Of a stretch of 64,000 nt of DNA, positions 31,684 to 63,442 are shown in pieces. Made by a program: the position numbers and the translations under genes. The notes under the pieces were generated by a model. The model saw nothing but the letters and a program-made list of their open reading frames with translations, did not search any database and had not been told where the DNA came from. Position 1 is the first letter of the stretch. The number at the start of each line of letters is the position of its first letter. This DNA comes from an uncultured Spirochaetota bacterium (GTDB lineage Bacteria > Spirochaetota > Brevinematia > Brevinematales > JAOACQ01): assembly GCA_963768055.1 (NCBI GenBank), contig CAVYGN010000002.1:1600001-1664000 (forward strand), written 5' to 3'.

Positions 31684-32751
31684 TTAGCTGAACAACTTAT
31701 GTCCGGATAAATCATCATTATTAATGGAACTATTAATATAGTATTTCATTGCTATTTCCGGATTGTTTCCTAGAAGCAAGGAGGTTTTTTTGGTATCATG
31801 AGTGATATCATAAAAGTTTGTGGCTGAAGTATGTCTGAAAGTGTAAAGGGTATATTCACTGTTTAGTTTTAGTTCTCTTTTAAGCTTTGAAAAAAGTTTG
31901 GAATAATACTCCCTATTTAGAAAATGACCTTTGAACAGATAATCTTTTAATTCATGATCCAGGATAATTTTTTCCAGATTCAGTTCATTCCAGGCAGCTT
32001 TACTGATTGGAATTTTTTTGTTTTTCTTTGTTTTGTTTTGGTAAATATGTATGCTTCTATTTTGAAAATCAATATCATTAATTTTGATATCAATTATTTC
32101 ACTAGGCCTGGAAAAAGTGTAATACAGAAGCTTTAAGTACAATGCAAAGTCGTAATCTTTTTTCTCGTTTTCAATGACAAAAAAAATTTTCTTTAAATCC
32201 TCACTAGAAATAATTATATCTCTTACTTTTGTTTTGATCCTGGGAAACCTTATTTTGTCGTAATCTACTCTCATATAATCACTCCTCCTTATTGAGTCAT
32301 TAAGAAATGCTTTGGTTTCACTAATGAATTTTTTTACGCTATCGTTTTGATAATTTTCATTTAGAAAATTATGGTAACGGTTAATTCCATCCTGGTCAAA
32401 ATCACTATAATCTTTAATACCACATTTCAATAATAGCTCAAGATTTTTCTTTTTAATGTTGATAGTTGTTTTTGTGATATTATCATTTTTACATGTTTCG
32501 ATATAATTTTTGTAATCTGCGGAAAATATCTTATTATTTCTTTTCTGGGATGAATTACAAGATATAACATCGATAACAGGTAAATCAACCATTTTACTTT
32601 TCCATTTTGTTAATACTACATCTTTCACAATCTCTCTATAGATTGATTCTGCTACTTGAATGTCATCAGTCTTGAGAGACATTACGTGCACTTTTTTGTT
32701 ACACTGAATCTTCACTATAAATTTTCCATTTTTTGCTTTAATTAATCCCAT
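31684..32751 (-). CDS. tyrosine integrase/recombinase (paralog of 30552-31633)
   Basis: FSRPSEI, NKTK, YTFRH, LLGN, MKYY; N-terminus MGLIKAKNG vs MGLVRRENG. Confidence 0.88.
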   Translation of the reverse strand: MGLIKAKNGKFIVKIQCNKKVHVMSLKTDDIQVAESIYREIVKDVVLTKWKSKMVDLPVIDVISCNSSQKRNNKIFSADYKNYIETCKNDNITKTTINIKKKNLELLLKCGIKDYSDFDQDGINRYHNFLNENYQNDSVKKFISETKAFLNDSIRRSDYMRVDYDKIRFPRIKTKVRDIIISSEDLKKIFFVIENEKKDYDFALYLKLLYYTFSRPSEIIDIKINDIDFQNRSIHIYQNKTKKNKKIPISKAAWNELNLEKIILDHELKDYLFKGHFLNREYYSKLFSKLKRELKLNSEYTLYTFRHTSATNFYDITHDTKKTSLLLGNNPEIAMKYYINSSINNDDLSGHKLFS

Positions 32752-37233: not shown

Positions 37234-37995
37234 TCAGGTCAAAGATTTTAACTTATTTTTCTTGATGAAATTATTCAACCTGAAACTTTTACCATCAATA
37301 ACTATTTTAACCGAACCGTCTATCAAGCGGTCCATAATCGCACTTCCAATTAAGGGATTAGAAAAAACCGCAGACCATTCAGATATATCTCGGTTGCTCG
37401 TAATAATGGTCGAGGCTTTGGTATACCGTCCATTAATAACTTCATATAGATCATCCTGCTGCTGCTGATTTAAATCCTGAAGCCCAAAGTCATCAAGAAT
37501 GAGAAGTTCGATTTTGAAGATGTTTTTCAGCTTTAAATTATAACTTCCATTGCCTCTTGCGGCGTTCAAGGAGCGCAGGAGCAAAACAGTGTTCTTAAAC
37601 ACTACCTCATGGCCTCTCCGGATAGCCTCATGTCCGATCGATTGAGCCAGGTGCGACTTTCCGACCCCGGAATGGCCTAAAAAAAAGATGTTTTCTTTGT
37701 TTTTAAGGAAATAACAGGTTGCCAGTTCCTTTATAACAGCTTCATTAATCTGAGGATTAAAACTAAAGTTGAAACTTTCCAGTGTTTTGTCATATTCAAG
37801 ACCGCTCTTTTTTAACCTGATTTTCATAGCTCGCTGTTCCCTTCTTTCTGATTCTTCAAGCAGTAGACCGAGCAGGAAATCAGTATATGATGTCTTTTCA
37901 TTCTGGGCCTTCTGGATATGATAATCAAGATTTTCCAATACCCCCGAGAGTTTCAAATGTTTAAGCCGGGGTATTAATTGTGCCCTGTCGTCCAT
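37234..37995 (-). CDS. istB: IS21 helper ATPase
   Basis: GHSGVGKSHLA, LLILDDFG, TIITSN, AIMDRL. Confidence 0.95.
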   Translation of the reverse strand: MDDRAQLIPRLKHLKLSGVLENLDYHIQKAQNEKTSYTDFLLGLLLEESERREQRAMKIRLKKSGLEYDKTLESFNFSFNPQINEAVIKELATCYFLKNKENIFFLGHSGVGKSHLAQSIGHEAIRRGHEVVFKNTVLLLRSLNAARGNGSYNLKLKNIFKIELLILDDFGLQDLNQQQQDDLYEVINGRYTKASTIITSNRDISEWSAVFSNPLIGSAIMDRLIDGSVKIVIDGKSFRLNNFIKKNKLKSLT

Positions 37996-38010
37996 AATAT
38001 TTTCCTCCTC

Positions 38011-39561
38011 CTATAATTTGAAGTAACTGCTATCCCTGGCATACTTGAACGGTAGGTAAGTTTTAGGTGGATGATTCTCGTCATAAGGCTCTTTCAGATC
38101 AAGCTCTTTAACCAGGATGCTCTTTACACTTGTATAGTTCGGAGTATCATAGAAAATTGCCCTCCTGCAGGCCGCTTCTAAGCGCTCTTTCGGATATTTC
38201 TTAGAAAGGAACAAAATACCTCTCGCAGAACGGAACCCGTCTATCTGTCTATTTGAAAGTATCCTTTCAACAACTTCCAGTGTCGTTTTTCCTATGTTTC
38301 CAGCCCAGGTAAGCAGGGATTGTGATGTTTCTGCCATATATTCTTCTTTGTAGGGCGGCGCGTGAAGGGGATTATGTGTATATTTCCATTTTATTCCGGA
38401 TTTCTCATGAAGCGCTATCAATTCGTACCCGGAATATACTTTTACAGACTTTGAATCTGCGCAGACCATTACTTCCTGGCCGATATACTTGTAAGGGACG
38501 CTATAGTATGAGCTGTCGTACTGAATCAGCCATTCGGGCCTTACAACGCAGGTTTTCCAGTTTATCATATCCCAATCTGTTAAAGGGAGCTTTGAGAGGG
38601 TCTTTGATTCTTCAATAAACATTTCGCAGGGGGATCTTCCTACACCATGAATAATTCTGATATCTGCCGTGTCTTCATCCCATTTTTTAAGCGACTCTTC
38701 AAGATCAATTGATATGGGTATTTTGTGGCCTTTCTGTTCCTGTTTCTCGATGAAATACGGCCAGAAGTTTCTTTTAATATATTTGATATCATTCTCTACG
38801 CCGCCCTTGTGTTCCGGTTTCCCGGGAAGACATGGACTGATCATGAAATCGTAATACTTGGCCATTTCAAGAAAACTTCGATTAAAGATAGGGTCATAAA
38901 ATGCGGCTTTTACAACGGCCGATTTCAGGTTGTCCGGCACGATCTTCTTCGGTATTCCTCCAAAGTGATGAAAAGAATGTATGATGCATAGAAAAAATGT
39001 CTCTTTTTTCTGGTTATAGACCACCTCGCGATATGCCTTACGGCTCTTTCTAAGCCTGCCGGAGAATACCCAGGCTTTTCTGTTCCTGCATTCCAGCGGA
39101 TCATAGACTATGCCGAGATATCCGAAATCCACTTCCATAACCCCGTCTTCAAGGGGTCTGATCATCACGCTTGGTTTCAAAGCAGGAAATTTTCTCTGTA
39201 TATACCGCCGGACGGTTGTTTCGGATATATTTGCACAATCAGAAAATTCACTGATCAGCTTGTGAATAACCACATAACTTTTTTCATCTTCCCTGTATTT
39301 TTTTAGTTTCTCAATATGATTATCCAGGATGTGAGGTTTTCCTTTGATATTTTCCGGCTCATTATATGCCAGGTCCATTTCTTTTTCTGTGGGCACGTCT
39401 GATGACGATGAAAGCCATCCCTTTTTATCGCCTATATCCTTTATTTTTCTTATGACTTCCCGGTGTGTCCCGGTTTCTTTGTGGATATTTCTGATAGATT
39501 CGCCTTTCTTTAGCCGGGTCAATATTTCGATGAGTTGTGCCATGGTTTTTACCCTCGCCAT
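38011..39561 (-). CDS. istA: IS21 transposase
   Basis: EVDFG, FGGIP..IVPDNLKSAV, KGGVE, YSVP. Confidence 0.95.
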   Translation of the reverse strand: MARVKTMAQLIEILTRLKKGESIRNIHKETGTHREVIRKIKDIGDKKGWLSSSSDVPTEKEMDLAYNEPENIKGKPHILDNHIEKLKKYREDEKSYVVIHKLISEFSDCANISETTVRRYIQRKFPALKPSVMIRPLEDGVMEVDFGYLGIVYDPLECRNRKAWVFSGRLRKSRKAYREVVYNQKKETFFLCIIHSFHHFGGIPKKIVPDNLKSAVVKAAFYDPIFNRSFLEMAKYYDFMISPCLPGKPEHKGGVENDIKYIKRNFWPYFIEKQEQKGHKIPISIDLEESLKKWDEDTADIRIIHGVGRSPCEMFIEESKTLSKLPLTDWDMINWKTCVVRPEWLIQYDSSYYSVPYKYIGQEVMVCADSKSVKVYSGYELIALHEKSGIKWKYTHNPLHAPPYKEEYMAETSQSLLTWAGNIGKTTLEVVERILSNRQIDGFRSARGILFLSKKYPKERLEAACRRAIFYDTPNYTSVKSILVKELDLKEPYDENHPPKTYLPFKYARDSSYFKL

Positions 39562-43608: not shown

Positions 43609-44220
43609 TCATAAATCAAATGTTTTTTTTGGCTTCAATTCGTATCCAAGTAAATAATCTGTTGTAACATTAAATAATTCGGCGAGTTTATAAATAATAT
43701 CGGAGGGTGGAGTTTTATCACCTACCTCATAGGATGTTATTGTAGTTCTGTTCAAATTAAGACGTTTTGCAACATCGTCTTGACTAAGATTGTAAAGTTT
43801 TCTTAAATATCTGATTCTGCTACCTGTTGAGATTTTTTTATTTTGACAAAATTCTACGCTTTTTATAGCCGATTCAATTGTGATAATTATATTATCAATG
43901 TTACCACCTTTTTCACAGTAACTTTGTATATCTAATGTATCTAGGGTTTTTAAACCAGGAGCTTCATTACCGTAACCTGTAAGTAATAAAATATAGATAT
44001 CTTTATTGAACTTTCTTATTTCGTTTACTACCCATATGCCATCATGTTCGTCTATACGGTGATCGAGAATTAATATATCATAAAATTCATTTTTAATTTT
44101 CTCTATACCTTCCAGCGAACTCATAACACCATCAATATAGTATTTATCAGATAAAAAAGCTTTTATAGTATTTATAATAGCCGGGTCATCATCAATTACA
44201 AGTATGCGTATACCGTTCAT
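43609..44220 (-). CDS. response regulator with C-terminal Xre/Cro-C1 HTH
   Basis: ILVIDDD, ILILD, LLTG, EK; RIRYLRK..LSQDDVA..L.L.RTTITSYE...FNVTTDYLLG. Confidence 0.92.
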   Translation of the reverse strand: MNGIRILVIDDDPAIINTIKAFLSDKYYIDGVMSSLEGIEKIKNEFYDILILDHRIDEHDGIWVVNEIRKFNKDIYILLLTGYGNEAPGLKTLDTLDIQSYCEKGGNIDNIIITIESAIKSVEFCQNKKISTGSRIRYLRKLYNLSQDDVAKRLNLNRTTITSYEVGDKTPPSDIIYKLAELFNVTTDYLLGYELKPKKTFDL

Positions 44221-45446
44221 ATGCTTGCCACTCCTTTTGGTATTTTTATATAAAAACTTGTATGGTTATCATATGAATCATACGAAATTACCCCATTAAA
44301 CCGCCCGCGTATAATAGTTTGTGCTATATAAAGACCAATTCCAGTGCCTTTATTTCCTTTCGAGGTGCACATATTCACAAATAATTTTTTCCTAATATCT
44401 TCTGGTATTGGATTCCCTTTATTAGTAATTGCAATTATCAATTCATTTTTATTTGCTGTGACAGTCAAATCTATTATTTTGTCATTAGAAGCTTCCATTC
44501 CGTTCGTCAGAATTGTGTTGCAAACTTGAACTAGAGAATCGATATCGCCATTTATTATATAGTTTTTGCATTCAATATTTGTTTTTAAAATAATTTCATG
44601 AACCTTCAGTTCATAGTCCATAAGTAGAAGTATACGCTCTATCAAATCATTTATATTAAAACTGTTAATCTCCTTTTCTTTTACCTCTACGGTTATTGCT
44701 TGACCTTTGACCGCATTTATCACATTAGTCATATAAATGTTGTTGTTATTTATGAGTACTTTCCAATATTCCATCTGTCTCATGAGTAAATCCATAACCT
44801 TAGGGTCAAATGAATTCTCTTTATACAATTGATTAATTTTAGAAATACACTCGTTAATTACCCGTATTCCAGCACTTGAAGTCATTAGAGGAGTTTTTAG
44901 ATTATGAGCCACCCCACCAATAATCTGACTTAAAAATATGAGACGTTCGTTTTCGATTATCTGCTTCTGCCTTTCCTCAATTGCTATTATATCCTGCATA
45001 AGAATATCTTGAGATTCTACAACACGCGAGAATTTCTTATCACTGCTCTGATTGCCATTTATTATTTCTTCCTCATTCAGCCATTTTAAGGCTTTATCAA
45101 CAGAATCAAAAATTTTAATGTCATATCTTTTGGCTACAGCAAATATATTTTGGGCAATGATACGTTGTTCAGGACTATTTACCACTGTAGCACTGCGGTA
45201 TATAATTTTTGCGTTTGGATTTTGCAATGATAGTGCGATTTTTATAGTTACATCCCGACCAAAATCCCATCCAAAATCCTGTACATCAGTTAAAACTTTA
45301 ACTTTACCATTTTGAGCACCAACTCGGCCTATTAGCTCATATAATTCTCTGTAGGCATCGTTCAGTTGGCCGAGTGACATGGTTGTTCGATATTTGAAAT
45401 ATATTATCCCATCATCCCTTAGATGGCAAAGTTTTAACTTTCCCAT
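44217..45446 (-). CDS. soluble sensor histidine kinase with SpoIIAA/STAS-like input domain
   Basis: H-box AHNLKTPL, N-box ILTNGMEA, G boxes NKG and GTGIGL; no TM helix; input domain ends IFDSVDKALKWL. Confidence 0.88.
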   Translation of the reverse strand: MGKLKLCHLRDDGIIYFKYRTTMSLGQLNDAYRELYELIGRVGAQNGKVKVLTDVQDFGWDFGRDVTIKIALSLQNPNAKIIYRSATVVNSPEQRIIAQNIFAVAKRYDIKIFDSVDKALKWLNEEEIINGNQSSDKKFSRVVESQDILMQDIIAIEERQKQIIENERLIFLSQIIGGVAHNLKTPLMTSSAGIRVINECISKINQLYKENSFDPKVMDLLMRQMEYWKVLINNNNIYMTNVINAVKGQAITVEVKEKEINSFNINDLIERILLLMDYELKVHEIILKTNIECKNYIINGDIDSLVQVCNTILTNGMEASNDKIIDLTVTANKNELIIAITNKGNPIPEDIRKKLFVNMCTSKGNKGTGIGLYIAQTIIRGRFNGVISYDSYDNHTSFYIKIPKGVASI

Positions 45447-45940: not shown

Positions 45941-46131
45941 TTTCACAACCTCACGATTTTTAAACACTTAATTATAACTTTTTTAATGAATATGTCTAAA
46001 AATTTCAACAAATTTGAAAAAATATTTTCAAATATTATTGACATTTAAAATAATGCAACATATTATATAATAATGTCTGTATTCATGGCATTTTTGCGAT
46101 AATTGTTATAATAATTTGCACAATTTAATTC

Positions 46132-46199
46132 AAAAAAGTACTTTAATACAAAAAAAGTACTTGAGTACTATTGACACTACACGATTTTATTTTTAAGAT
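46132..46199 (+). promoter_or_regulatory. promoter of the biosynthetic operon with upstream direct repeats
   Basis: AAAAAAGTACTT at 46132 and 46151, AGTACT at 46164, then TTGACA(46171)-17 bp-TAAGAT(46194); a second candidate TTGACA-17-TATTAT lies at 46038-46066. Confidence 0.6.
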
Positions 46200-46534
46200 G
46201 ATGACACTAAAAATTCTAAGCAGTTTATTTAAGAGTAAATTTATGAGAAAGTCCAGGCGATTGATTCAATTAAAGTGTTTTGATATTGAGATAATATTTA
46301 GGTTTAAAAAAATATAAGGAAAGATTTAAAAGTTTGTACAGCTAAACAAAAAGAAGTCAGGAAATATTTAATTTATTTAAACGTAAATTGAGTTTACTTG
46401 AGTTTGTTAAAAATGTAAAAAATCATTTGTATTGAAATGAGTTTGAATAATAGAATGTCAAGATCTTGGAAATGCAGATTCGATTTGACTAATTTTCCAT
46501 TATTTAAAGGTTAAAATATTTTGTGTGAGAAAAA

Positions 46535-47233
46535 ATGAAAAATAATCGTATTATTATTGGAATCATTGATAGTGGTGTCGACAGAAGGTTTATTATTGAA
46601 AATGGTGCTAAAATTAAAAAAGCGTCCGCATTTAATATAATACAAGAAAGCCGACTTGTAGAGTGTATTGAATATAGTAAAAAAGATATAAAAAAATGGC
46701 TAGCTGGAAAAATCGATCATATATCGGATGAACATGGCCATGGGACTTCTGTTCTTTCTATAATTTGGGGAATTTTACCCAATGCTGAATTCGTGGTTTC
46801 AAAGGTTCTTGACCATGAAAAAAAAGGATATTCGATATGCCTTGTAGAAGCGCTTCGTTGGATGATAGAAAAAACTGATGTCCTTATAATAAATATAAGC
46901 ATTACGACAAATGATACAAATATTAAGGATGATATGTTAAAACTTGTCAAAGAAGCAAAAAAGAAAGGTATAGTTATATATTCAGCGAAAGATAATGAAT
47001 ATAGTATACCTGCTTCTGTTGATGGTGTTGTTTCAGTAACTGATTTTTTAACAATAAATAAAGTCGGGCAATATTCTCTACTAAAATCGGACGTTGTAAT
47101 TGAAAAAAAGGAAGAATTAATTTGGTGGGAAGGCGAATGGATTCAAGATCCTATTAAACCAAGTTGGGCTTGTGCAGTAGCTGTTTCTAAAAAGTTTGAA
47201 ACTGGACATAATTTTAAAAAGAGATTTGTATGA
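46535..47233 (+). CDS. compact cytoplasmic S8 (subtilisin-like) peptidase
   Basis: IIDSG (Asp), DEHGHGT (His), IINIS, PSWAC (Ser); no signal peptide. Confidence 0.8.
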   Translation: MKNNRIIIGIIDSGVDRRFIIENGAKIKKASAFNIIQESRLVECIEYSKKDIKKWLAGKIDHISDEHGHGTSVLSIIWGILPNAEFVVSKVLDHEKKGYSICLVEALRWMIEKTDVLIINISITTNDTNIKDDMLKLVKEAKKKGIVIYSAKDNEYSIPASVDGVVSVTDFLTINKVGQYSLLKSDVVIEKKEELIWWEGEWIQDPIKPSWACAVAVSKKFETGHNFKKRFV

Positions 47234-49134
47234 AAAATAAAAATTTAAATTTACCATCTACATTCGTTTTAAAAAATTATACTTCTAAATATTATTTTGA
47301 TATTAATGCATTATTTTGGAACAGTTTATTCTCAGAAAAATATTTAACTAAAATTTTTCAAGAAATCAAACTTAGAAACAAAATAACAGATTTTGAGGAA
47401 ATTTATTTTGATTATCTTATTGTTAATATTTCAGCTATAAAAAGTATGATGTCTGATTGTTATGTCTATAAATATCTTGAAAAAAATGTCTATTTATGTT
47501 TTAAAGTATTCTATTTGATAGTAAACATATTTAACCTAATTAGTTCAGATCATAGAATTTCCTTGTCCTATGGAATATCTTACTTAAAAGATATCAGTAA
47601 TATTTCTTTAAGTATAAATAATATTTTTATAAATCAATTTTTTGATGATATACTGAATAACAGCTTTTTTGAAGATAATATTCAATATAATATAAATATT
47701 CATTGGGAAAATGAATTATATAGTTTAATTCTTTTATCTATTAAATTACGTGAAAAATTTAAAAATGTTAGAGTTATAGTGGATTTCAGTCAAGTAAATG
47801 AACAGGTAGATTTTACTCAATGGATTTCTAATAATAATATCAGACAATATATAGATAACTTTAATAATATATATCATGAAGATAATCATAAAATTATTAA
47901 TGCTAATTATCATATTGGTGACGTGTTTAAAACAAAAAATATAGGGACTAGATTATTCAATACAAAGTGTTATTGGAATAAATGTTCTTTTTGTACAATA
48001 AATTCAAGGCACAAATCTGATCATACTTTTAATTCATTAACAAAAGAAGCAAAAGAGATTGTTGATAGCTTTATTAAAAGTATTTTAAATTATAATGAAT
48101 TAATTTATATAACTTTTTCTGATGAAGCTATTGAAAGTTCAATATTATTATATTTTGCGGAGCAAATTATAAACCAAAACATTAATATAAAATGGATTGC
48201 AAGGACAAGATTTTCTAATATTTTTACTTATGAAAACTGTAAAACATTATCTCAATCTGGATTGAAAATGATTGGTTTGGGTCTAGAGTCTGTTAATCCG
48301 AGAATATTGAGTCTTATGAATAAAAGAGAAAAATTCTATGATACTCAAGAATTGAATCGTATTATTGGTAATTTCGACCAAAATAATGTAAGTGTACATA
48401 CATACTTTATTATTGGTTTCCCATCTGAAACGAAAAAAGAAACCAAGCAAACACTAAATTTCATTGATTATAATCTCAAAAAAAGAAAGTACTTTACATA
48501 TTCAGCTAATAGGTTTTATCTAATGAAAGGGTCGAAAATTTATAGTAATCCGAAGGAATTTGGAATTGAAATAATCGATAAAGGTGAAGATGTTAAAATA
48601 GGTAATATCAATTATATTGATCAAAATAAAGGTCATAAATACAGCAGAGAAGAAATATTATTTTTGTCTAAGAAAGCTTATTCGAAAATGTTTTTTAAAA
48701 AAGTTAATAACAATTATTTAATTATATTAGGATGTAATTTCTGGGATTTTATTGATAGAACAGCATTATTTTATATTCATAAATATTACAATGAATTGAA
48801 TCCTTATTTTAGAAGAAATAAAAAAAGGATAAAACTTCATGATGAAGATCTTGATTCATTTTATAAAATTATCAGCATTCCTATTTATAAATTAAATCCT
48901 TTGATATATTTTGATATTATTAATGATAGATATATTAGGATTAAAGAAATATTAAAAAATCTTTTTTATAAGTTTATTAATTCTTATAACACAAAATTAA
49001 CACTCAGACAGAATATTTATGAAATATTACAAAAATTAGATTATAAATGTTCTAATAAGCAAATTAATTTATTTAATAAAATGATAATTCAATTAATTGA
49101 TGATGCATACTTGTATAGGATTGAAAAATTGTAA
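47230..49134 (+). CDS. radical SAM protein, B12-dependent-class-like core
   Basis: CYWNKCSFC, FSDE, GLESVN.RIL.LM.K, IIGFPSET; overlaps the peptidase stop (ATGA). Confidence 0.85.
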   Translation: MKNKNLNLPSTFVLKNYTSKYYFDINALFWNSLFSEKYLTKIFQEIKLRNKITDFEEIYFDYLIVNISAIKSMMSDCYVYKYLEKNVYLCFKVFYLIVNIFNLISSDHRISLSYGISYLKDISNISLSINNIFINQFFDDILNNSFFEDNIQYNINIHWENELYSLILLSIKLREKFKNVRVIVDFSQVNEQVDFTQWISNNNIRQYIDNFNNIYHEDNHKIINANYHIGDVFKTKNIGTRLFNTKCYWNKCSFCTINSRHKSDHTFNSLTKEAKEIVDSFIKSILNYNELIYITFSDEAIESSILLYFAEQIINQNINIKWIARTRFSNIFTYENCKTLSQSGLKMIGLGLESVNPRILSLMNKREKFYDTQELNRIIGNFDQNNVSVHTYFIIGFPSETKKETKQTLNFIDYNLKKRKYFTYSANRFYLMKGSKIYSNPKEFGIEIIDKGEDVKIGNINYIDQNKGHKYSREEILFLSKKAYSKMFFKKVNNNYLIILGCNFWDFIDRTALFYIHKYYNELNPYFRRNKKRIKLHDEDLDSFYKIISIPIYKLNPLIYFDIINDRYIRIKEILKNLFYKFINSYNTKLTLRQNIYEILQKLDYKCSNKQINLFNKMIIQLIDDAYLYRIEKL

Positions 49135-49276
49135 CTTATATAATAATAAATAATAAAATTAAACGTAAAAACATATTAATTGACATTATGATTGAAAATT
49201 TTACAAACCTTATAAAGTTAAGATTTTTATTAATGAAATTCCCGGTTGGAGATAAAATAGGTAAAAAGGAGTATTT

Positions 49277-49516
49277 ATGAAGAAAAACCCTGTCAGGTTT
49301 TATGACATTCCTGAGTCATTAAAGGAAATTTATGCTCTTGGTTCTGGTAGCGGTAATAGTGGTTCTGTAGCAGGAGATTGTTGTTCTGTTACTAATACAA
49401 CTTCTACTTGTGGTTGTGTTGGCTGGATGGCAAGTGCTAATACAACTTGCCAGACTAATACTTTTTCCTCTGCATCATTCTTTAAGAAACCACCCGCAAA
49501 AAGAATAATTAAGTAA
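49277..49516 (+). CDS. putative RiPP precursor peptide (79 aa, 5 Cys, Ser/Thr/Gly-rich)
   Basis: AAGGAG RBS; charged leader, GS linker, core DCCSVTNTTSTCGCVGWMASANTTCQTNTF, basic tail; lies between radical SAM genes. Confidence 0.82.
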   Translation: MKKNPVRFYDIPESLKEIYALGSGSGNSGSVAGDCCSVTNTTSTCGCVGWMASANTTCQTNTFSSASFFKKPPAKRIIK

Positions 49517-49585
49517 TATCTTAAAACAATAATTTCAAGTTAATTATCTCCAGCTGGGAAAATTATATTAAAGAGAGAAAAGAAT

Positions 49586-50695
49586 ATGAAATATACAATA
49601 ATATTAACTCAAAAGTGCAATCTAGCATGTAAATACTGTTTTGAACATAATAAAGAGAATAATTATCTTAAAGAAAATATGATACCTTCAATCTTAGGAT
49701 TTATTAATTATTATCAAAATCAAGAATTTGTTTTAGATAAAAATATATCGATAGTTTTTAATGGCGGAGAACCACTTCTTAATTTTACAGTATTAAAAAA
49801 ATTACATATTGCTTTGGAAAAAATTGGTGTTAACGATTTTTCGATTTCTACAAATTTAACATTATTAACAGATGAAATTATTACTTATTTATATAATAAC
49901 AAGTTTATTTTACATATTAGCCTTGATGGAACTAAAGATATTCATAATAAAAACAGAATCTTCAAAGATGGAAAAGGAACATTTGATATTGTTTATAATA
50001 ATGTTGTGAAAATTAGGAAAAAATATCCTGATTGGAATAATTCATATAATATTACAATTTCTCCAGGCACTGTACATGATTTATATAATAGTTTTAGATT
50101 ATTAACAGATTTGGGTATAAGGAGAATTACAGCTGCATATTGTGCGGATTATGAAATGAATGAAAATAATATAGAAATATTCAAAAATGAAATGAGAAAA
50201 ATTAGTAAGGATTATATTGCTTTCTATGAAAATAATGAAAATATCTATTTTAAATTTTTAACCGATGGTATTTTATACACAATAAATAATAAAAAAGCAG
50301 CATGTGGAGTATGTAAGAGCGAAATTGCTATATTACCTTCAGGTGAAATATTGCCATGTGTGGTTTTTGTTGGACAAAATAATTATAGAGATTACATTTT
50401 AGGTACTTTGAATAGTTCATTGAATTATAATAAAATTAATATGCTTTTAGATAAGAAATTATTTAATTTGTCTGAATGTAATAATTGTAGTTTACTTCAA
50501 AGATGTTTTGTTGAATGTTATGCGGTAAACTTAAGAGTTATGGGGAATTTATTTGATATACCAGATTGCTATTGCCATATCAATCAGATTTGTTTACAAG
50601 AAGCTGAATATGTTATTAATGATTTATATAATAAAAAGAATAAACTATTTATTAATCAATATAATCTTAGCAAATTAAATAAAGAATCAATTTAA
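49586..50695 (+). CDS. radical SAM/SPASM peptide maturase
   Basis: CNLACKYC, FNGGEPLL, ISLDG, SPASM CG..GEILPC..CNNC.....CFVEC...CYC. Confidence 0.9.
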   Translation: MKYTIILTQKCNLACKYCFEHNKENNYLKENMIPSILGFINYYQNQEFVLDKNISIVFNGGEPLLNFTVLKKLHIALEKIGVNDFSISTNLTLLTDEIITYLYNNKFILHISLDGTKDIHNKNRIFKDGKGTFDIVYNNVVKIRKKYPDWNNSYNITISPGTVHDLYNSFRLLTDLGIRRITAAYCADYEMNENNIEIFKNEMRKISKDYIAFYENNENIYFKFLTDGILYTINNKKAACGVCKSEIAILPSGEILPCVVFVGQNNYRDYILGTLNSSLNYNKINMLLDKKLFNLSECNNCSLLQRCFVECYAVNLRVMGNLFDIPDCYCHINQICLQEAEYVINDLYNKKNKLFINQYNLSKLNKESI

Positions 50696-50714
50696 AATTA
50701 ATTGGGGAAATAAT

Positions 50715-51836
50715 ATGTATGGATTAATATTAACTGAGAGTTGTAATATGTCATGTAAATATTGTTTTGAAAAACATAAAAATTATGGTCGACAAATGAA
50801 TGATGAAATAATTATTAGTGCTGCTGATTATATTGTTAAAGACTATATAAATAAAGGTAAAGAAGATTATTTTGTAGTTAATATTACAGGTGGAGAACCT
50901 TTCCTTAAATTTGATCTTTTGAAAAAATTATTACTAGAAATAAAAGAGAAAATGAGTATTAATAAAATTAAGCAATATTCGTTTGAAATATCAACAAATG
51001 GTACAATAATAAACGAAGGTATAATAAAATTTATTATAAAAAATAATATTAGATTATTTGTTGGATTCGATGGTATTAAAAAAAGTTATAATGAAGGGCG
51101 TTTTTTTAAAGACCAACCAGGTGTTTATAATATTGTTTATAAAAATATTTTAATATTAAAAGAAAAGGTGAATAAAAATAATATTGTTTTGAATCTGGTT
51201 ATTACTCCAGAGAATGTACAATATTTAAATCAAAATATTAATTTTATGTATATTCTTGACTTACAAATGTCAATTACATTTGCTTATGAACAAGAGTGGA
51301 GTGAGAAATCTATTGTAATATTGAGAAAAGAGTTTCTAATATTTCTTAATTTTTATAAAGATATTGTTAAAACAAATCATGATTTTAGTATTGGATTAAT
51401 TGATAAAACTATAAAACAATGTTTATTTCCTCGTAATTATTATCCTGGTATATGTAGTGCTGCAGAACCCCAACTTGTTATTTTGACTGACGGCAACATT
51501 GTACCTTGTGGCAGTTTTTGTTATATACAGGATAATAATACTGATTTTATTATTGGAAATGTATTTCAAGGAATAGATGAGAATAAACGTTTAAAATTCA
51601 GAAAGTCATTAGAAAATATAGATTTTGAGGAATGTAAAGGTTGTTTATTTATAAATAAATGTACTAATTACTGTACTGCCATAAACTATCTTGTAACAAA
51701 TAATACTCAAGAAATACCAAGTTCTGTTTGTGAAATTAATAAAATATTGATTACCGGATGTGAATTATTAATTGATAATTTGACTAAAGAAAATAGTAAC
51801 TATATAAAAGAGAAATATTTAAAAGAGGTTGATTAA
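50715..51836 (+). CDS. second radical SAM/SPASM peptide maturase
   Basis: CNMSCKYC, TGGEP, STNG, SPASM CSA..GNIVPC..CKGC.....CTNYC...C. Confidence 0.9.
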   Translation: MYGLILTESCNMSCKYCFEKHKNYGRQMNDEIIISAADYIVKDYINKGKEDYFVVNITGGEPFLKFDLLKKLLLEIKEKMSINKIKQYSFEISTNGTIINEGIIKFIIKNNIRLFVGFDGIKKSYNEGRFFKDQPGVYNIVYKNILILKEKVNKNNIVLNLVITPENVQYLNQNINFMYILDLQMSITFAYEQEWSEKSIVILRKEFLIFLNFYKDIVKTNHDFSIGLIDKTIKQCLFPRNYYPGICSAAEPQLVILTDGNIVPCGSFCYIQDNNTDFIIGNVFQGIDENKRLKFRKSLENIDFEECKGCLFINKCTNYCTAINYLVTNNTQEIPSSVCEINKILITGCELLIDNLTKENSNYIKEKYLKEVD

Positions 51837-54179
<2,343 letters not shown>

Positions 54180-54257
54180 TAAAATACAATGATATCTTAA
54201 TGGTAAAATTATTTAATTTGTTGATTTGGAATAAATATTTAAGGAATTGGAGGCTAT

Positions 54258-54761
54258 ATGTTGGATTTGGCTTATTTAAATATTGGAACTTTGAAACAAT
54301 TGTATATGCAGTACATCAAAAAAAATGAAAATAAGTATTATTTGATTGACTTCTTTAGTAACTACGATATTCAAATCGATCCAAATGATTGGAATCGAAT
54401 TCAATATGTTAGTAAAGATTTTAACGGTAATATCATTGCTTATTTTGAAGCAAGAATAAATCGAGGATTTAATATTATTAATGATTTAGAAATATTAAAA
54501 TTTATTGAATATCCCAATATAATATGGATTCATGATTTTATCAGATTTCTCAAAGTGTTATTGCTTGAAAAAAACTTCAGAAAAGTGGTTTTTTATGCTA
54601 TCATAGACAACCCATCTTTTACAAAATGTGAACTATATTTATTGAAGTATAAATTGGTTAAAGAAGTTGGTGTAATGAAAAACCATTGTATTCTTAATGA
54701 TGGAAAAATTTATGATATGAAAATTTTTGAGATTGAAAGAGATAATTTAGGAAAATGGTAG
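54258..54761 (+). CDS. GNAT-family N-acyltransferase (RimJ/RimL-like)
   Basis: GNIIAY, NFRKV.F....NP, EVG.MK.H..L.DGK.YD..IFEI; GGAGG RBS. Confidence 0.8.
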   Translation: MLDLAYLNIGTLKQLYMQYIKKNENKYYLIDFFSNYDIQIDPNDWNRIQYVSKDFNGNIIAYFEARINRGFNIINDLEILKFIEYPNIIWIHDFIRFLKVLLLEKNFRKVVFYAIIDNPSFTKCELYLLKYKLVKEVGVMKNHCILNDGKIYDMKIFEIERDNLGKW

Positions 54762-54767
54762 AAAATA

Positions 54768-55541
54768 ATGATTTTTAATATTTTATTAAAACTATCAATA
54801 AGAAATCTTTTTCGTCATAAAACAAAGAATCTGCTCGTTGTCCTTATGATCATGACGGGCTGTTCCCTGTTTTTTATAGCTTCCTCGCTTGAATGGAATA
54901 TCAGGGATAACTGGAGGCATTACCTTTCAGATACGGTCTTGGGAGATTACTATATAACTTCGATAACGGGGATCGGCGACGATTACCGTTTTTTTAACAC
55001 TGTCCCGCCGCTGAAATTTATCAATAAGGAAATTATTGATTTTCTCGACAGGAATAAAATTCAATATTCATGCAGGATAAGGACCGGGGCAAAGTATTAT
55101 GATGAGAAGCTCGGGTTTCGGGATTTCAACAAATTCCTCGGTATAGATTTTTTAAAGGAGGAAAAGATCCTCTCCAATATATTGATTTATGACGGCACAT
55201 TCGAACCTGCCTCAGATAACGGCATGGATTTTTTCTGGAATCCTTCCTGGAATTATCAGCCGCCGGTCGGGACAAACCTTGTGGTATTAATTCTTGCACT
55301 TGCCGGATATCTGATTGGTGTATTCATCGGTGCTTTGTCAGGCAGTATAATTGAAAATATGCGGATATACCTGGTGTTCCAGGATTATATGAACGGACCT
55401 GTAATGTTCATTCATTCCTTTTGGGATTTTCTCTACATACTGCTGTTCATATTATTACTGACAGCGGTTTGGAGCATTCCGGTAATTAACCGGATCGTCT
55501 CGAAAGCCCCCGCGAGGGTATTCAGGGAACAATCGTATTAA
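54768..55541 (+). pseudogene. FtsX/MacB-type ABC permease, internally deleted
   Basis: Typical N-terminus LSIRNLFRHK.K and partial periplasmic domain joined directly to the last TM helices; 257 aa versus the usual ~400 or more. Confidence 0.6.
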
Positions 55542-62515: not shown

Positions 62516-63442
62516 ATGGAAATTAATCCCACAATGCCGACCGTTTTTAAGGGAGTTATCCGGCCAAAACATTATACCAAATTCTGTCGTTTTCTCGGGA
62601 ACAGCAGCCAGACAATCAGATCTTATATGACTTCTTTAAAGGCTTTCAAAATATTTATAAACAAAGATATATACCAGGTAACAAAAAAAGACGTCTTTGA
62701 TTATCATGTTTATCTGGAAGTTCAGACTTCGGAATTCAAATTGGCGGCCTCTACTGCTCGCCTCCGGTGGTATGCCCTTAATAAATTTTTCAAGCTGGCT
62801 ATGGCTGAAAATTGGATAAGGTATAATCCAATGGTTGAAGTTGAAAAGATTTCGTCAAATTTAAAATTGCCCTCAGCTATAAATGATATTGAACTTCCTT
62901 TAGTTGATGGCAAAAGTTTTAATCGGGAAATAATAAATAAGGCAATTGAATTATCTGAAGATCAGCGTCTCACAATAATAATAAAGCTATTATCAAGGAC
63001 CGGTGCCAGAGTTTCGGAAGTACTAGGGTTGAAGTGGGGTCATGTGATCACCTTTGGAAATGATGTGATTTATACATTTCTAGGAAAAGGTAAACGAATC
63101 CGGGATGTAAAAGACTTTGATGGGAAACAGCTATTTGAAGAAATGAAATTAGTATTCAGCCCTGAAAGAACAAATCGGGATGATTTTATCTTTATAAATG
63201 AAAAAGGAAGAGTATTCAAATACAGTGCTCTTTATATGAGAATACGCTGTCTTTTTGAAAAAAACTTTTCTACAGATCGCCCTGTTTCCCCGCACAAGTT
63301 CAGGCACTTTCTTATAACCTATCTTTTAAATGAAGTTAAACTACCCTTAAAAACTGTTCAGAAAATTGTCGGTCACAGATTCTCAATGACGACAATAAGA
63401 TATGACCACCCTCCGGAAATAAAATATAATGTAGGGGTTTAA
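62516..63442 (+). CDS. XerC/D-like tyrosine recombinase
   Basis: SAM-like N-domain; TGARVSE, GKG, PHKFRH, VGH, TTIRY (complete R-K-H-R-H-Y set). Confidence 0.92.
   Translation: MEINPTMPTVFKGVIRPKHYTKFCRFLGNSSQTIRSYMTSLKAFKIFINKDIYQVTKKDVFDYHVYLEVQTSEFKLAASTARLRWYALNKFFKLAMAENWIRYNPMVEVEKISSNLKLPSAINDIELPLVDGKSFNREIINKAIELSEDQRLTIIIKLLSRTGARVSEVLGLKWGHVITFGNDVIYTFLGKGKRIRDVKDFDGKQLFEEMKLVFSPERTNRDDFIFINEKGRVFKYSALYMRIRCLFEKNFSTDRPVSPHKFRHFLITYLLNEVKLPLKTVQKIVGHRFSMTTIRYDHPPEIKYNVGV

Follow-up and report, generated by a model that had tools for sequence, protein, structure and literature searches.

A peptide gene cluster with a long-range inverted repeat

The stretch of DNA analysed here (64 kb, positions 1,600,001 to 1,664,000 of contig CAVYGN010000002.1 of an uncultured Spirochaetota bacterium; below, the window) carries on its + strand a gene cluster of the ribosomally synthesised and post-translationally modified peptide (RiPP) type. 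This work deals with the small precursor gene of that cluster and with a 17-bp helix predicted for its messenger RNA, one strand of which lies ahead of the ribosome-binding site and the other behind the stop codon. The features of the locus, in coordinates of the window, are the following.

46535-47233, + strand: subtilisin-like (S8) protease, first gene of the cluster
47230-49134, + strand: B12-type radical S-adenosylmethionine (SAM) gene, upstream of the left arm
49233-49236 with 49563-49566, + strand: possible outer extension of the helix by 4 bp across a 2x2 internal loop, also present in the minimum-energy fold
49239-49255, + strand: left (5') arm, TTCCCGGTTGGAGATAA, upstream of the ribosome-binding site of the precursor
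49266-49271, + strand: AAGGAG, a Shine-Dalgarno-like sequence for the precursor, located in the loop with 5 nt between it and the ATG at 49277
49277-49516, + strand: precursor open reading frame (ORF), 79 aa, Cys-rich, enclosed by the helix
49544-49560, + strand: right (3') arm, TTATCTCCAGCTGGGAA, in the spacer between precursor and maturase
49586-50695, + strand: first radical-SAM/SPASM maturase (PapB-like), with Radical_SAM and Fer4_12 matches
50715-51836, + strand: second radical-SAM/SPASM maturase (PapB-like), with domain and NCBIfam matches
51837-54179, + strand: 780-aa protein with a C-terminal PDZ-like match, relatives of which occur in the related loci L059 and L027
54258-54761, + strand: 167-aa protein without family match; five related loci have a relative of it immediately upstream of the precursor

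The precursor begins with a leader that contains the common N-P-V-K-x-Y...K-E-I motif, continues with a Gly/Ser linker and a Cys/Thr-rich core and ends in a basic tail; it has no family match in Pfam or NCBIfam. For both maturases the best model is NF047865 (rSAM_PapB, PapB-family ranthipeptide maturase), with 177.6 and 177.4 bits against a cut-off of 340; as judged by these scores they are related to PapB and, being below the cut-off, not assignable as members of its family. The start of the first maturase at 49586 is supported by the alignment of its relatives, in which M1 and the C11/C15/C18 motif are conserved. The database copy of this protein (P0002) is 338 aa long and begins 31 codons late, a start which would remove the CX3CX2C radical-SAM motif.

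The helix in the window

A repeat finder reports the two arms as an inverted repeat of 17 nt, 88% complementary, with 288 nt between them. In RNA of the + strand all 17 positions pair (15 Watson-Crick and 2 G.U), the two mismatches of the DNA being G:T and T:G, which give G.U on this strand and C.A/A.C in RNA of the - strand. Each arm contains 8 G/C in 17 positions, within an island of 23-26% GC. The left arm is found 105 nt past the stop of the B12-type radical-SAM gene, 21 nt upstream of the ATG at 49277 and 10 nt upstream of AAGGAG; the right arm starts 27 nt past the precursor stop (49514-49516), and 25 nt separate its end from the maturase ATG at 49586. The possible outer extension is weak and could have arisen by chance. 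The original prediction, made from the letters of the window, had described inverted-repeat arms flanking the ribosome-binding site and the stop of the precursor, with both DNA mismatches forming G-U on the sense RNA and both arms richer in GC than their AT-rich spacers; the arms were confirmed at these positions, the pairing diagram bears out that all 17 positions are paired, and the base composition agrees.

Folding of positions 49200-49600, proposed together with that description, places the helix in both the minimum-energy and the centroid structure of the + strand (-99.1 kcal/mol, z -3.87, 0 of 100 shuffles as good). The fold of the - strand is weaker (-79.5 kcal/mol, z -2.08, 3 of 100 shuffles as good). 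Averaged over the 17 pairs of the window and computed with 40-nt flanks, the ensemble pair probability is 0.96.

To set this helix against chance, uninterrupted helices of at least 12 bp with loops of 30-600 nt were collected from both strands of the 64 kb, which gave 344 on the + strand and 253 on the - strand. The helix around the precursor is the strongest of them on either strand, with -27.2 kcal/mol against -25.2 and -22.0 for the runners-up. When the AT-rich island (46000-54200) was shuffled 200 times with its dinucleotides preserved, no shuffle reached it, the best helix per shuffle being -16.1 kcal/mol on average and -22.7 kcal/mol at most. In the whole genome (3.69 Mb, ~45% GC), among strand-specific helices of at least 15 bp with loops of 100-600 nt, it takes the 38th place of 434 by energy; many of the stronger helices belong to repeat families or are GC-rich. 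Because the energy is not unique genome-wide, the case made below rests on the placement and the conservation of the helix and not on energy alone.

The motif of the arms has exact matches in the genome only at the two arms themselves; with two mismatches allowed, 8 scattered single sites are found, against 2 for a reversed control pattern. Rfam gave 0 matches at E up to 1 over positions 48800-50000. A dispersed repeat or miniature inverted-repeat transposable element was considered and rejected, since only the two arms match exactly and the one further match to 49100-49700 in the genome is a weak one of 73 nt at the start of the second maturase.

Inverted repeats of other kinds are present in the same genome. 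The two strongest long-range ones are at C1:116593-116983 (43 bp, 305-nt loop) and C2:134352-134654 (27 bp, 249-nt loop). There are also two families of short elements with terminal inverted repeats of 21-24 bp and 110-190 nt between them, which look like miniature transposable elements; examples are C1:924646-924841, C1:1307852-1308079, C2:274113-274332 and C1:1013111-1013333; others are C1:146179-146417, C1:402785-403004 and C2:463518-463675.

Related loci

Comparison of the DNA of 49100-49700 with 60 relatives gave only short AT-rich matches with E values of 1e-4 or weaker, and a word search for homologues of the precursor returned only the precursor itself. Related loci were collected via alignment of the maturase, 36 from metagenome contigs and 10 from species genomes; relatives of the first maturase were found at 51%, 46% and 34-40% identity. 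The closer protein relatives of other collections (P0003 at 51%, P0006-P0018) are outside the set of loci compared here. In a sample of the phylum, 10 of 401 genomes, the genome of the window included, have a maturase match with E of 1e-45 or lower, and the close family occurs only in G008 (the same locus as L059) and G161 (L071); in a second sample, drawn from the family of G161, 1 of 401 genomes matched. Viral contigs yielded matches to the radical-SAM core only, at 41% identity or less, and no close relative.

The close family comprises nine loci. L070 is identical to L059, and L028 to L027 (0 differences in 400 nt), and each pair was counted once; L024 was left out as its sequence ends 166 nt upstream of the maturase. 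The eight distinct loci that could be assessed are the window, L059 (titled a Brevinematales metagenome-assembled genome), L060 (titled a Treponema metagenome-assembled genome), L023, L025, L026, L071 and L027. Each of them has a small Cys/Gly-rich ORF with the common leader motif and a C-G-x-x-G-x-F-like core, and the precursor alignment joins the ORF of the window with small ORFs at the equivalent place in the seven related loci. The 79-aa ORF of the window is therefore supported as a precursor. In the more distant maturase loci (L029-L058, L061-L068, L072-L078, L082 and L083) no helix enclosing a precursor-like ORF was found, a comparison in which many of the loci are GC-rich, so that the energy threshold says little for them, and which does not amount to a test of absence.

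At positions 671-700 of L025 the precursor ORF has an in-frame ATG, at 671, without Shine-Dalgarno sequence, and a strong GGAGG-N8-ATG that is shifted by one base relative to its frame; this may be an indel error in the metagenome contig or an unusual start.

A protein of ~170 aa without Pfam match is present in six of the eight loci and stands directly upstream of the precursor in five. Its coordinates are 54258-54761 in the window, 3212-3736 in L023, 121-687 in L025, 3149-3658 in L026, 2925-3437 (- strand) in L071 and 1685-2190 in L027, where a frameshift interrupts the copy. Probably the protein is a partner dedicated to this peptide family.

Conservation of pairing with turnover of sequence

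In all eight loci the strongest pairing around the small ORF, between the 150 nt upstream and the downstream spacer, is an uninterrupted helix of 12-19 bp. The lengths are given below.

Window: 17 bp
L059: 12 bp
L060: 17 bp
L023: 19 bp
L025: 19 bp
L026: 14 bp
L071: 19 bp
L027: 17 bp

With extensions across single mismatches the helix of L025 reaches up to ~25 bp. The loops measure 204-290 nt; 12-37 nt separate the end of the left arm from the start codon, and 6-42 nt separate the precursor stop from the beginning of the right arm. In none of 200 shuffles was the observed helix energy reached, in each of seven loci (L027 not included), and positional controls, which have the same geometry elsewhere in the locus, gave no match in six loci and one match in 73 placements in L071. 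That single match is a 22-bp helix with G.U at 1888-1909/2178-2199 (reverse-complement coordinates), inside the coding region of the maturase; at -24.4 kcal/mol it is stronger than the bracket around the precursor of L071. In L027, L023, L026 and L025 the bracket exceeds every other long-range helix of the stored locus in strength, and ensemble pair probabilities are 0.96-0.98 in all eight loci.

The arms pair with their own partners only. When arms were swapped between loci, 0 of 56 combinations reached the weakest matched pair, with means of -22.1 kcal/mol for matched and -6.6 kcal/mol for swapped arms; the strongest swap (-11.8 kcal/mol) was between the related loci L060 and L023. The arms of these two loci can be aligned and differ by three double changes from G-C to A-U. 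In L027 a CTC in the left arm and a GAG in the right arm stand beside a core common to L071, where both are absent. As the arms are out of register in the MAFFT alignment, pair counts and swap controls were scripted in place of a column-wise count of covariation.

The original prediction had named arms not conserved in homologues as an observation that would speak against it. On checking, the pairing proved to be conserved in 8 of 8 loci. Pairing that is kept between arms of unrelated sequence is the mark of a conserved cis-regulatory RNA structure, and by sequence comparison this helix bears it.

The genes on either side are less constant. Upstream of the precursor there is the B12-type radical-SAM gene in the window and in L059, the ~170-aa protein in L023, L025, L026, L071 and L027, and unrelated housekeeping genes in L060; downstream there is the maturase in seven loci and in L027 a 514-aa protein, the ATG of which is covered by the right arm. 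Because the flanking genes differ between loci, the helix can be said to travel with the precursor and not with a neighbour.

RNA or DNA

The helix cores of the eight loci, defined with sense-strand G.U allowed, contain 128 Watson-Crick and 6 G.U pairs; all G.U are on the sense strand and no pair is G.U on the antisense strand only. The internal pairs that are not Watson-Crick number 5, all of them sense-strand G.U; the window contributes 2 and L025 contributes 3. The sense duplex is by far the stronger one in the window (-29.4 vs -20.3 kcal/mol for antisense) and in L025 (-30.0 vs -18.7 kcal/mol); it is somewhat stronger in L027 and equal to the antisense duplex in three loci. That selection is on RNA structure, as had been proposed, is thus supported by the bracket kept in eight of eight loci, by the concerted changes of the arms and by the sense-strand G.U pairs, and we regard it as very probable that a selected helix of the sense-strand RNA brackets the precursor cistron.

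The inverted repeat could instead be an element of the DNA, namely the recombination sites of an invertible or mobile cassette (inverton, terminal inverted repeats) or a pair of operators. Five of the eight inverted repeats are perfect in DNA, two tyrosine recombinase genes and an IS21-type pair are present in the low-GC island of the window, and the genome carries the short-element families with terminal repeats of 21-24 bp described above. However, the arm sequences are unrelated between loci and there is therefore no common site for a recombinase or a regulator, none of the 28 ORFs of at least 120 aa that flank the seven related loci in the stored sequence belongs by its matches to a recombinase family, the arm motif is without any other paired copy in the genome, and internal mismatches are tolerated only on the sense RNA. 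Taken together, a DNA-level element appears extremely improbable. An inverton in particular is not supported, as neither a recombinase match in the seven related flanks nor a common site was found and the nearest integrase-family genes of the window are ~17 kb upstream and ~13 kb downstream. Among sequencing runs, none of RNA was found that covers the stretch; the only one of DNA, stored as contigs, has two short pieces there without joints, a coverage too poor to speak for or against an inversion.

The cluster as a whole (46000-55000) forms an island of 23-26% GC within DNA of ~40-49% GC. The surrounding low-GC stretch holds the tyrosine recombinase genes, at 31684-32751 (- strand) and 62516-63442 (+ strand), and the IS21-type transposase/helper pair, at 37234-39561, and four genomes of the same genus lack the cluster. 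On account of the low GC, of these nearby genes and of this absence, the cluster was probably acquired horizontally. Just upstream of it and divergent, at 43609-45446 (- strand), are a response regulator with an XRE-type helix-turn-helix domain and a histidine-kinase-like protein, which are candidate regulators of the cluster.

Proposed action of the helix

The action that we favour, tentatively and as quite possible, is RNase III-type excision and stabilisation of a precursor-only mRNA in panhandle form. Very probably the arms pair in the sense mRNA into a helix of about two turns, leaving the precursor cistron, from ribosome-binding site to stop, as a 288-nt loop of a presumably polycistronic transcript. 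Such a near-perfect duplex would be a substrate of the double-strand RNase of the cell (RNase III), and a staggered cut in the stem would free a precursor-only mRNA of ~300 nt. The 5' and 3' ends of the excised mRNA would remain paired and be shielded from end-dependent nucleases, while the enzyme messages up- and downstream would keep exposed ends, and the outcome would be more template for the peptide than for the enzymes from a single promoter. The sequences themselves show the helix with its position and strand bias, its conservation despite turnover of the letters, and a gene for RNase III, whereas cleavage, stabilisation, co-transcription and the effect on stoichiometry are what we infer here. 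The original prediction had likewise put forward an RNase III-type processing or stabilising stem by which peptide mRNA would exceed enzyme mRNA.

RNase III itself is encoded by the genome (104 bits, above the cut-off, in an open frame of 261 aa), which is necessary but not sufficient for the model. In B. subtilis, the RNase III sites that were mapped (Taggart et al., Nucleic Acids Res 2025, PMC11780869) are duplexes of 10-36 bp formed within one mRNA, the cuts being up to 505 nt apart; an action of RNase III type is plausible in so far as the length and the span of the present helix are within that range. The duplex offers 17 uninterrupted pairs in the window and 12-19 in the family, with L059 at the low end.

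The model further needs the left arm to be transcribed as part of the operon. The upstream ORF ends inside the left arm or at most 22 nt from it in five loci, and no σ70-like match of at least 9/12 was found on the + strand between the stop of the B12-type radical-SAM gene and the left arm of the window, in a scan which is at chance level overall (57 matches vs 57 expected in shuffles) and uninformative in such AT-rich DNA. Because of this proximity and of the lack of a promoter-like match, the left arm is probably internal to the operon transcript, and one double-strand cut would therefore make both new ends. Nor was a promoter common to the regions upstream of the left arms seen across the loci.

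Several observations weigh against the excision of a panhandle mRNA or against the evidence brought for it. The energy of the helix in its own genome ranks only 38th of 434. The antisense duplex is slightly stronger in L059 (-25.3 vs -23.8 kcal/mol) and in L026 (-20.2 vs -19.6 kcal/mol), and the five helices that are perfect in DNA hold no information on the strand; the G.U bias amounts to 5 internal events in 2 loci, or ~1 in 32 if transitions are equally likely per strand. Concerted changes of the arms could also be explained by template-switch correction of quasi-palindromes in DNA. The helix of L059, with only 12 uninterrupted pairs, is short for RNase III. In L023, L025 and L027 the stop codon of the upstream gene is in or past the left arm, and a cut in the stem would therefore leave the upstream message without stop codon. 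Last, a U-rich run follows the last G-C pair of the right arm in five of the eight loci (at least 5 T in an 8-nt stretch; 0.19 in controls, binomial P 0.008, by a rule chosen post hoc), a pattern which fits a terminator.

A long-range leaky terminator, or a shield of the 3' end, is accordingly the main rival explanation: the helix together with the U-rich run would halt some polymerases or block 3' exonucleases, much as the hairpins after other precursor genes do, except that the 5' arm stands ahead of the cistron, and this would work without an endonuclease. In L060, L023, L025 and L071 the outer portion of the helix has an A-rich left and a U-rich right strand, and such an A-tract/U-tract layout is seen in terminators. 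The cluster is moreover without an ordinary terminator, with 0 conventional sites in 46000-52000. A comparable case is that of a B. subtilis radical-SAM peptide operon, where, in the accessible part of the report, a terminator hairpin in the epeX-epeE spacer goes together with a very stable epeX mRNA (bioRxiv 10.64898/2026.04.02.716078). On the other side, the five-in-eight rule was selected after seeing the data and the helix of the window fails it, the tail past its last G-C pair being AAAATTATATTA; under the scan rule, with the counted stretch 0-2 nt past the helix end, the run is present in 3 of 8 loci vs 0.20 of controls (P 0.19), and this is the only rule that the window passes. The loops of 204-290 nt are far from the 3-8 nt of intrinsic terminators, and no short hairpin of that kind is found. 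A U-rich right arm is also the automatic consequence of an A-rich left arm in the sense strand, and a local hairpin would suffice for termination, so that the distant 5' arm kept in 8 of 8 loci is left unexplained. We consider a terminator or 3'-end shield rather unlikely.

The position of the arms relative to the neighbouring genes would also suit a translational device, of which three forms can be conceived from the sequence: the helix could hinder the ribosome-binding site of the downstream enzyme gene while that of the precursor is free in the loop, it could bring the upstream stop to the downstream start for coupling or for shunting past the precursor, or it could bring the precursor stop to its own start for re-use of the ribosome. 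In seven loci 11-26 nt lie between the right arm and the downstream start, and in L023, L060, L071 and L025 the arm stops 0-4 nt short of a Shine-Dalgarno-like motif; in L027 it covers the start codon, and for this reading six loci are counted in which the upstream ORF stops inside the left arm or up to 22 nt from it. Pairing between 5' and 3' untranslated regions (UTRs) controls translation of icaR, as stated in the accessible text of PMC3868564. In the window, however, 105 nt separate the upstream stop from the left arm, and GAGAG, the Shine-Dalgarno-like sequence downstream, comes 12 nt after the end of the helix; neither occlusion nor coupling is therefore obvious there. L060 is without an upstream cluster gene, and a ribosome that finishes its upstream ORF within the left arm would open the helix instead of making use of it. 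A translational device seems to us improbable.

More speculative still, and very improbable, would be a closed-loop translation in which the stop is held beside its own ribosome-binding site and re-initiation occurs on the same ORF, with a shunt at the base of the stem by which ribosomes on the enzyme genes could bypass the precursor. The predicted geometry fits such a closed loop and shunt in that the upstream stop is 0-22 nt from the left arm in six of eight loci and the downstream start is 11-26 nt past the right arm in seven of eight loci; if true, it would be a bacterial counterpart of the circularisation of eukaryotic mRNA.

Significance and comparison with known systems

Producers of modified peptides need far more precursor than enzyme. 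To provide excess precursor from a single operon, the routes known to us use separate promoters or a local hairpin behind the precursor gene. A helix built from both flanks and kept in all relatives despite turnover of its sequence would be a compact and portable device for uncoupling one gene from its operon. Such a bracketing helix marks precursor genes that are missed by family searches, as here, where there was no family match, and it would be worth retaining when clusters of this type are moved into production hosts. In open-access full texts we found no paper on a helix to which both flanks of a precursor cistron contribute and which is kept throughout a cluster family.

What is already known are long-range mRNA duplexes as substrates of RNase III, leader-trailer stems of rRNA, pairing between 5' and 3' UTRs, and hairpins after precursor genes. 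A hairpin or leaky terminator follows the precursor gene in nisA, sboA and others. In the puf operon of Rhodobacter the mRNA has segments of different stability, and the small abundant polypeptides are protected by flanking RNA structure. As in the locus described here, small products needed in bulk and proteins needed in lesser amount share one operon; puf has a separate local hairpin at each end, whereas here a single helix is made from both ends.

In the rrn precursor, RNase III processing stems flank the 16S and the 23S rRNA, which is also stated in the accessible part of PMC6582327. Like the present helix these stems are leader-trailer pairings around a whole unit, in which one double-strand cut defines both ends; unlike it, they enclose a stable RNA of 1.5-2.9 kb, while here the enclosed unit is a translated ORF of 240 nt with its ribosome-binding site. 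The long-range RNase III substrates of B. subtilis (Taggart et al., PMC11780869) are, as here, duplexes within an mRNA across hundreds of nt. They were mapped by end sequencing, and in the accessible part of that paper none is said to enclose a whole peptide-cluster cistron; in our case, in an organism related to spirochaete-type metagenome-assembled genomes, the defining trait is the enclosure of exactly one small cistron, and cleavage is a prediction.

For the hbs mRNA of B. subtilis, a 14-bp pairing of 5' and 3' UTR is described (Braun, Durand and Condon 2017, PMC5737220). The hbs transcript is monocistronic and, as far as the accessible text goes, the pairing modulates cleavage by RNase Y in the leader, without excision of a cistron from an operon. 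Alike in its proposed effect and in its place on the 3' side is the epeX-epeE spacer of B. subtilis, where, according to the available part of the report (bioRxiv 10.64898/2026.04.02.716078), a structure between precursor and enzyme gene uncouples the two mRNA levels and the precursor mRNA is stable, as would be the case here. The structures of the epeX type are local stem-loops, whereas in the family described in this work the 5' strand lies ahead of the cistron and the whole gene is the loop.

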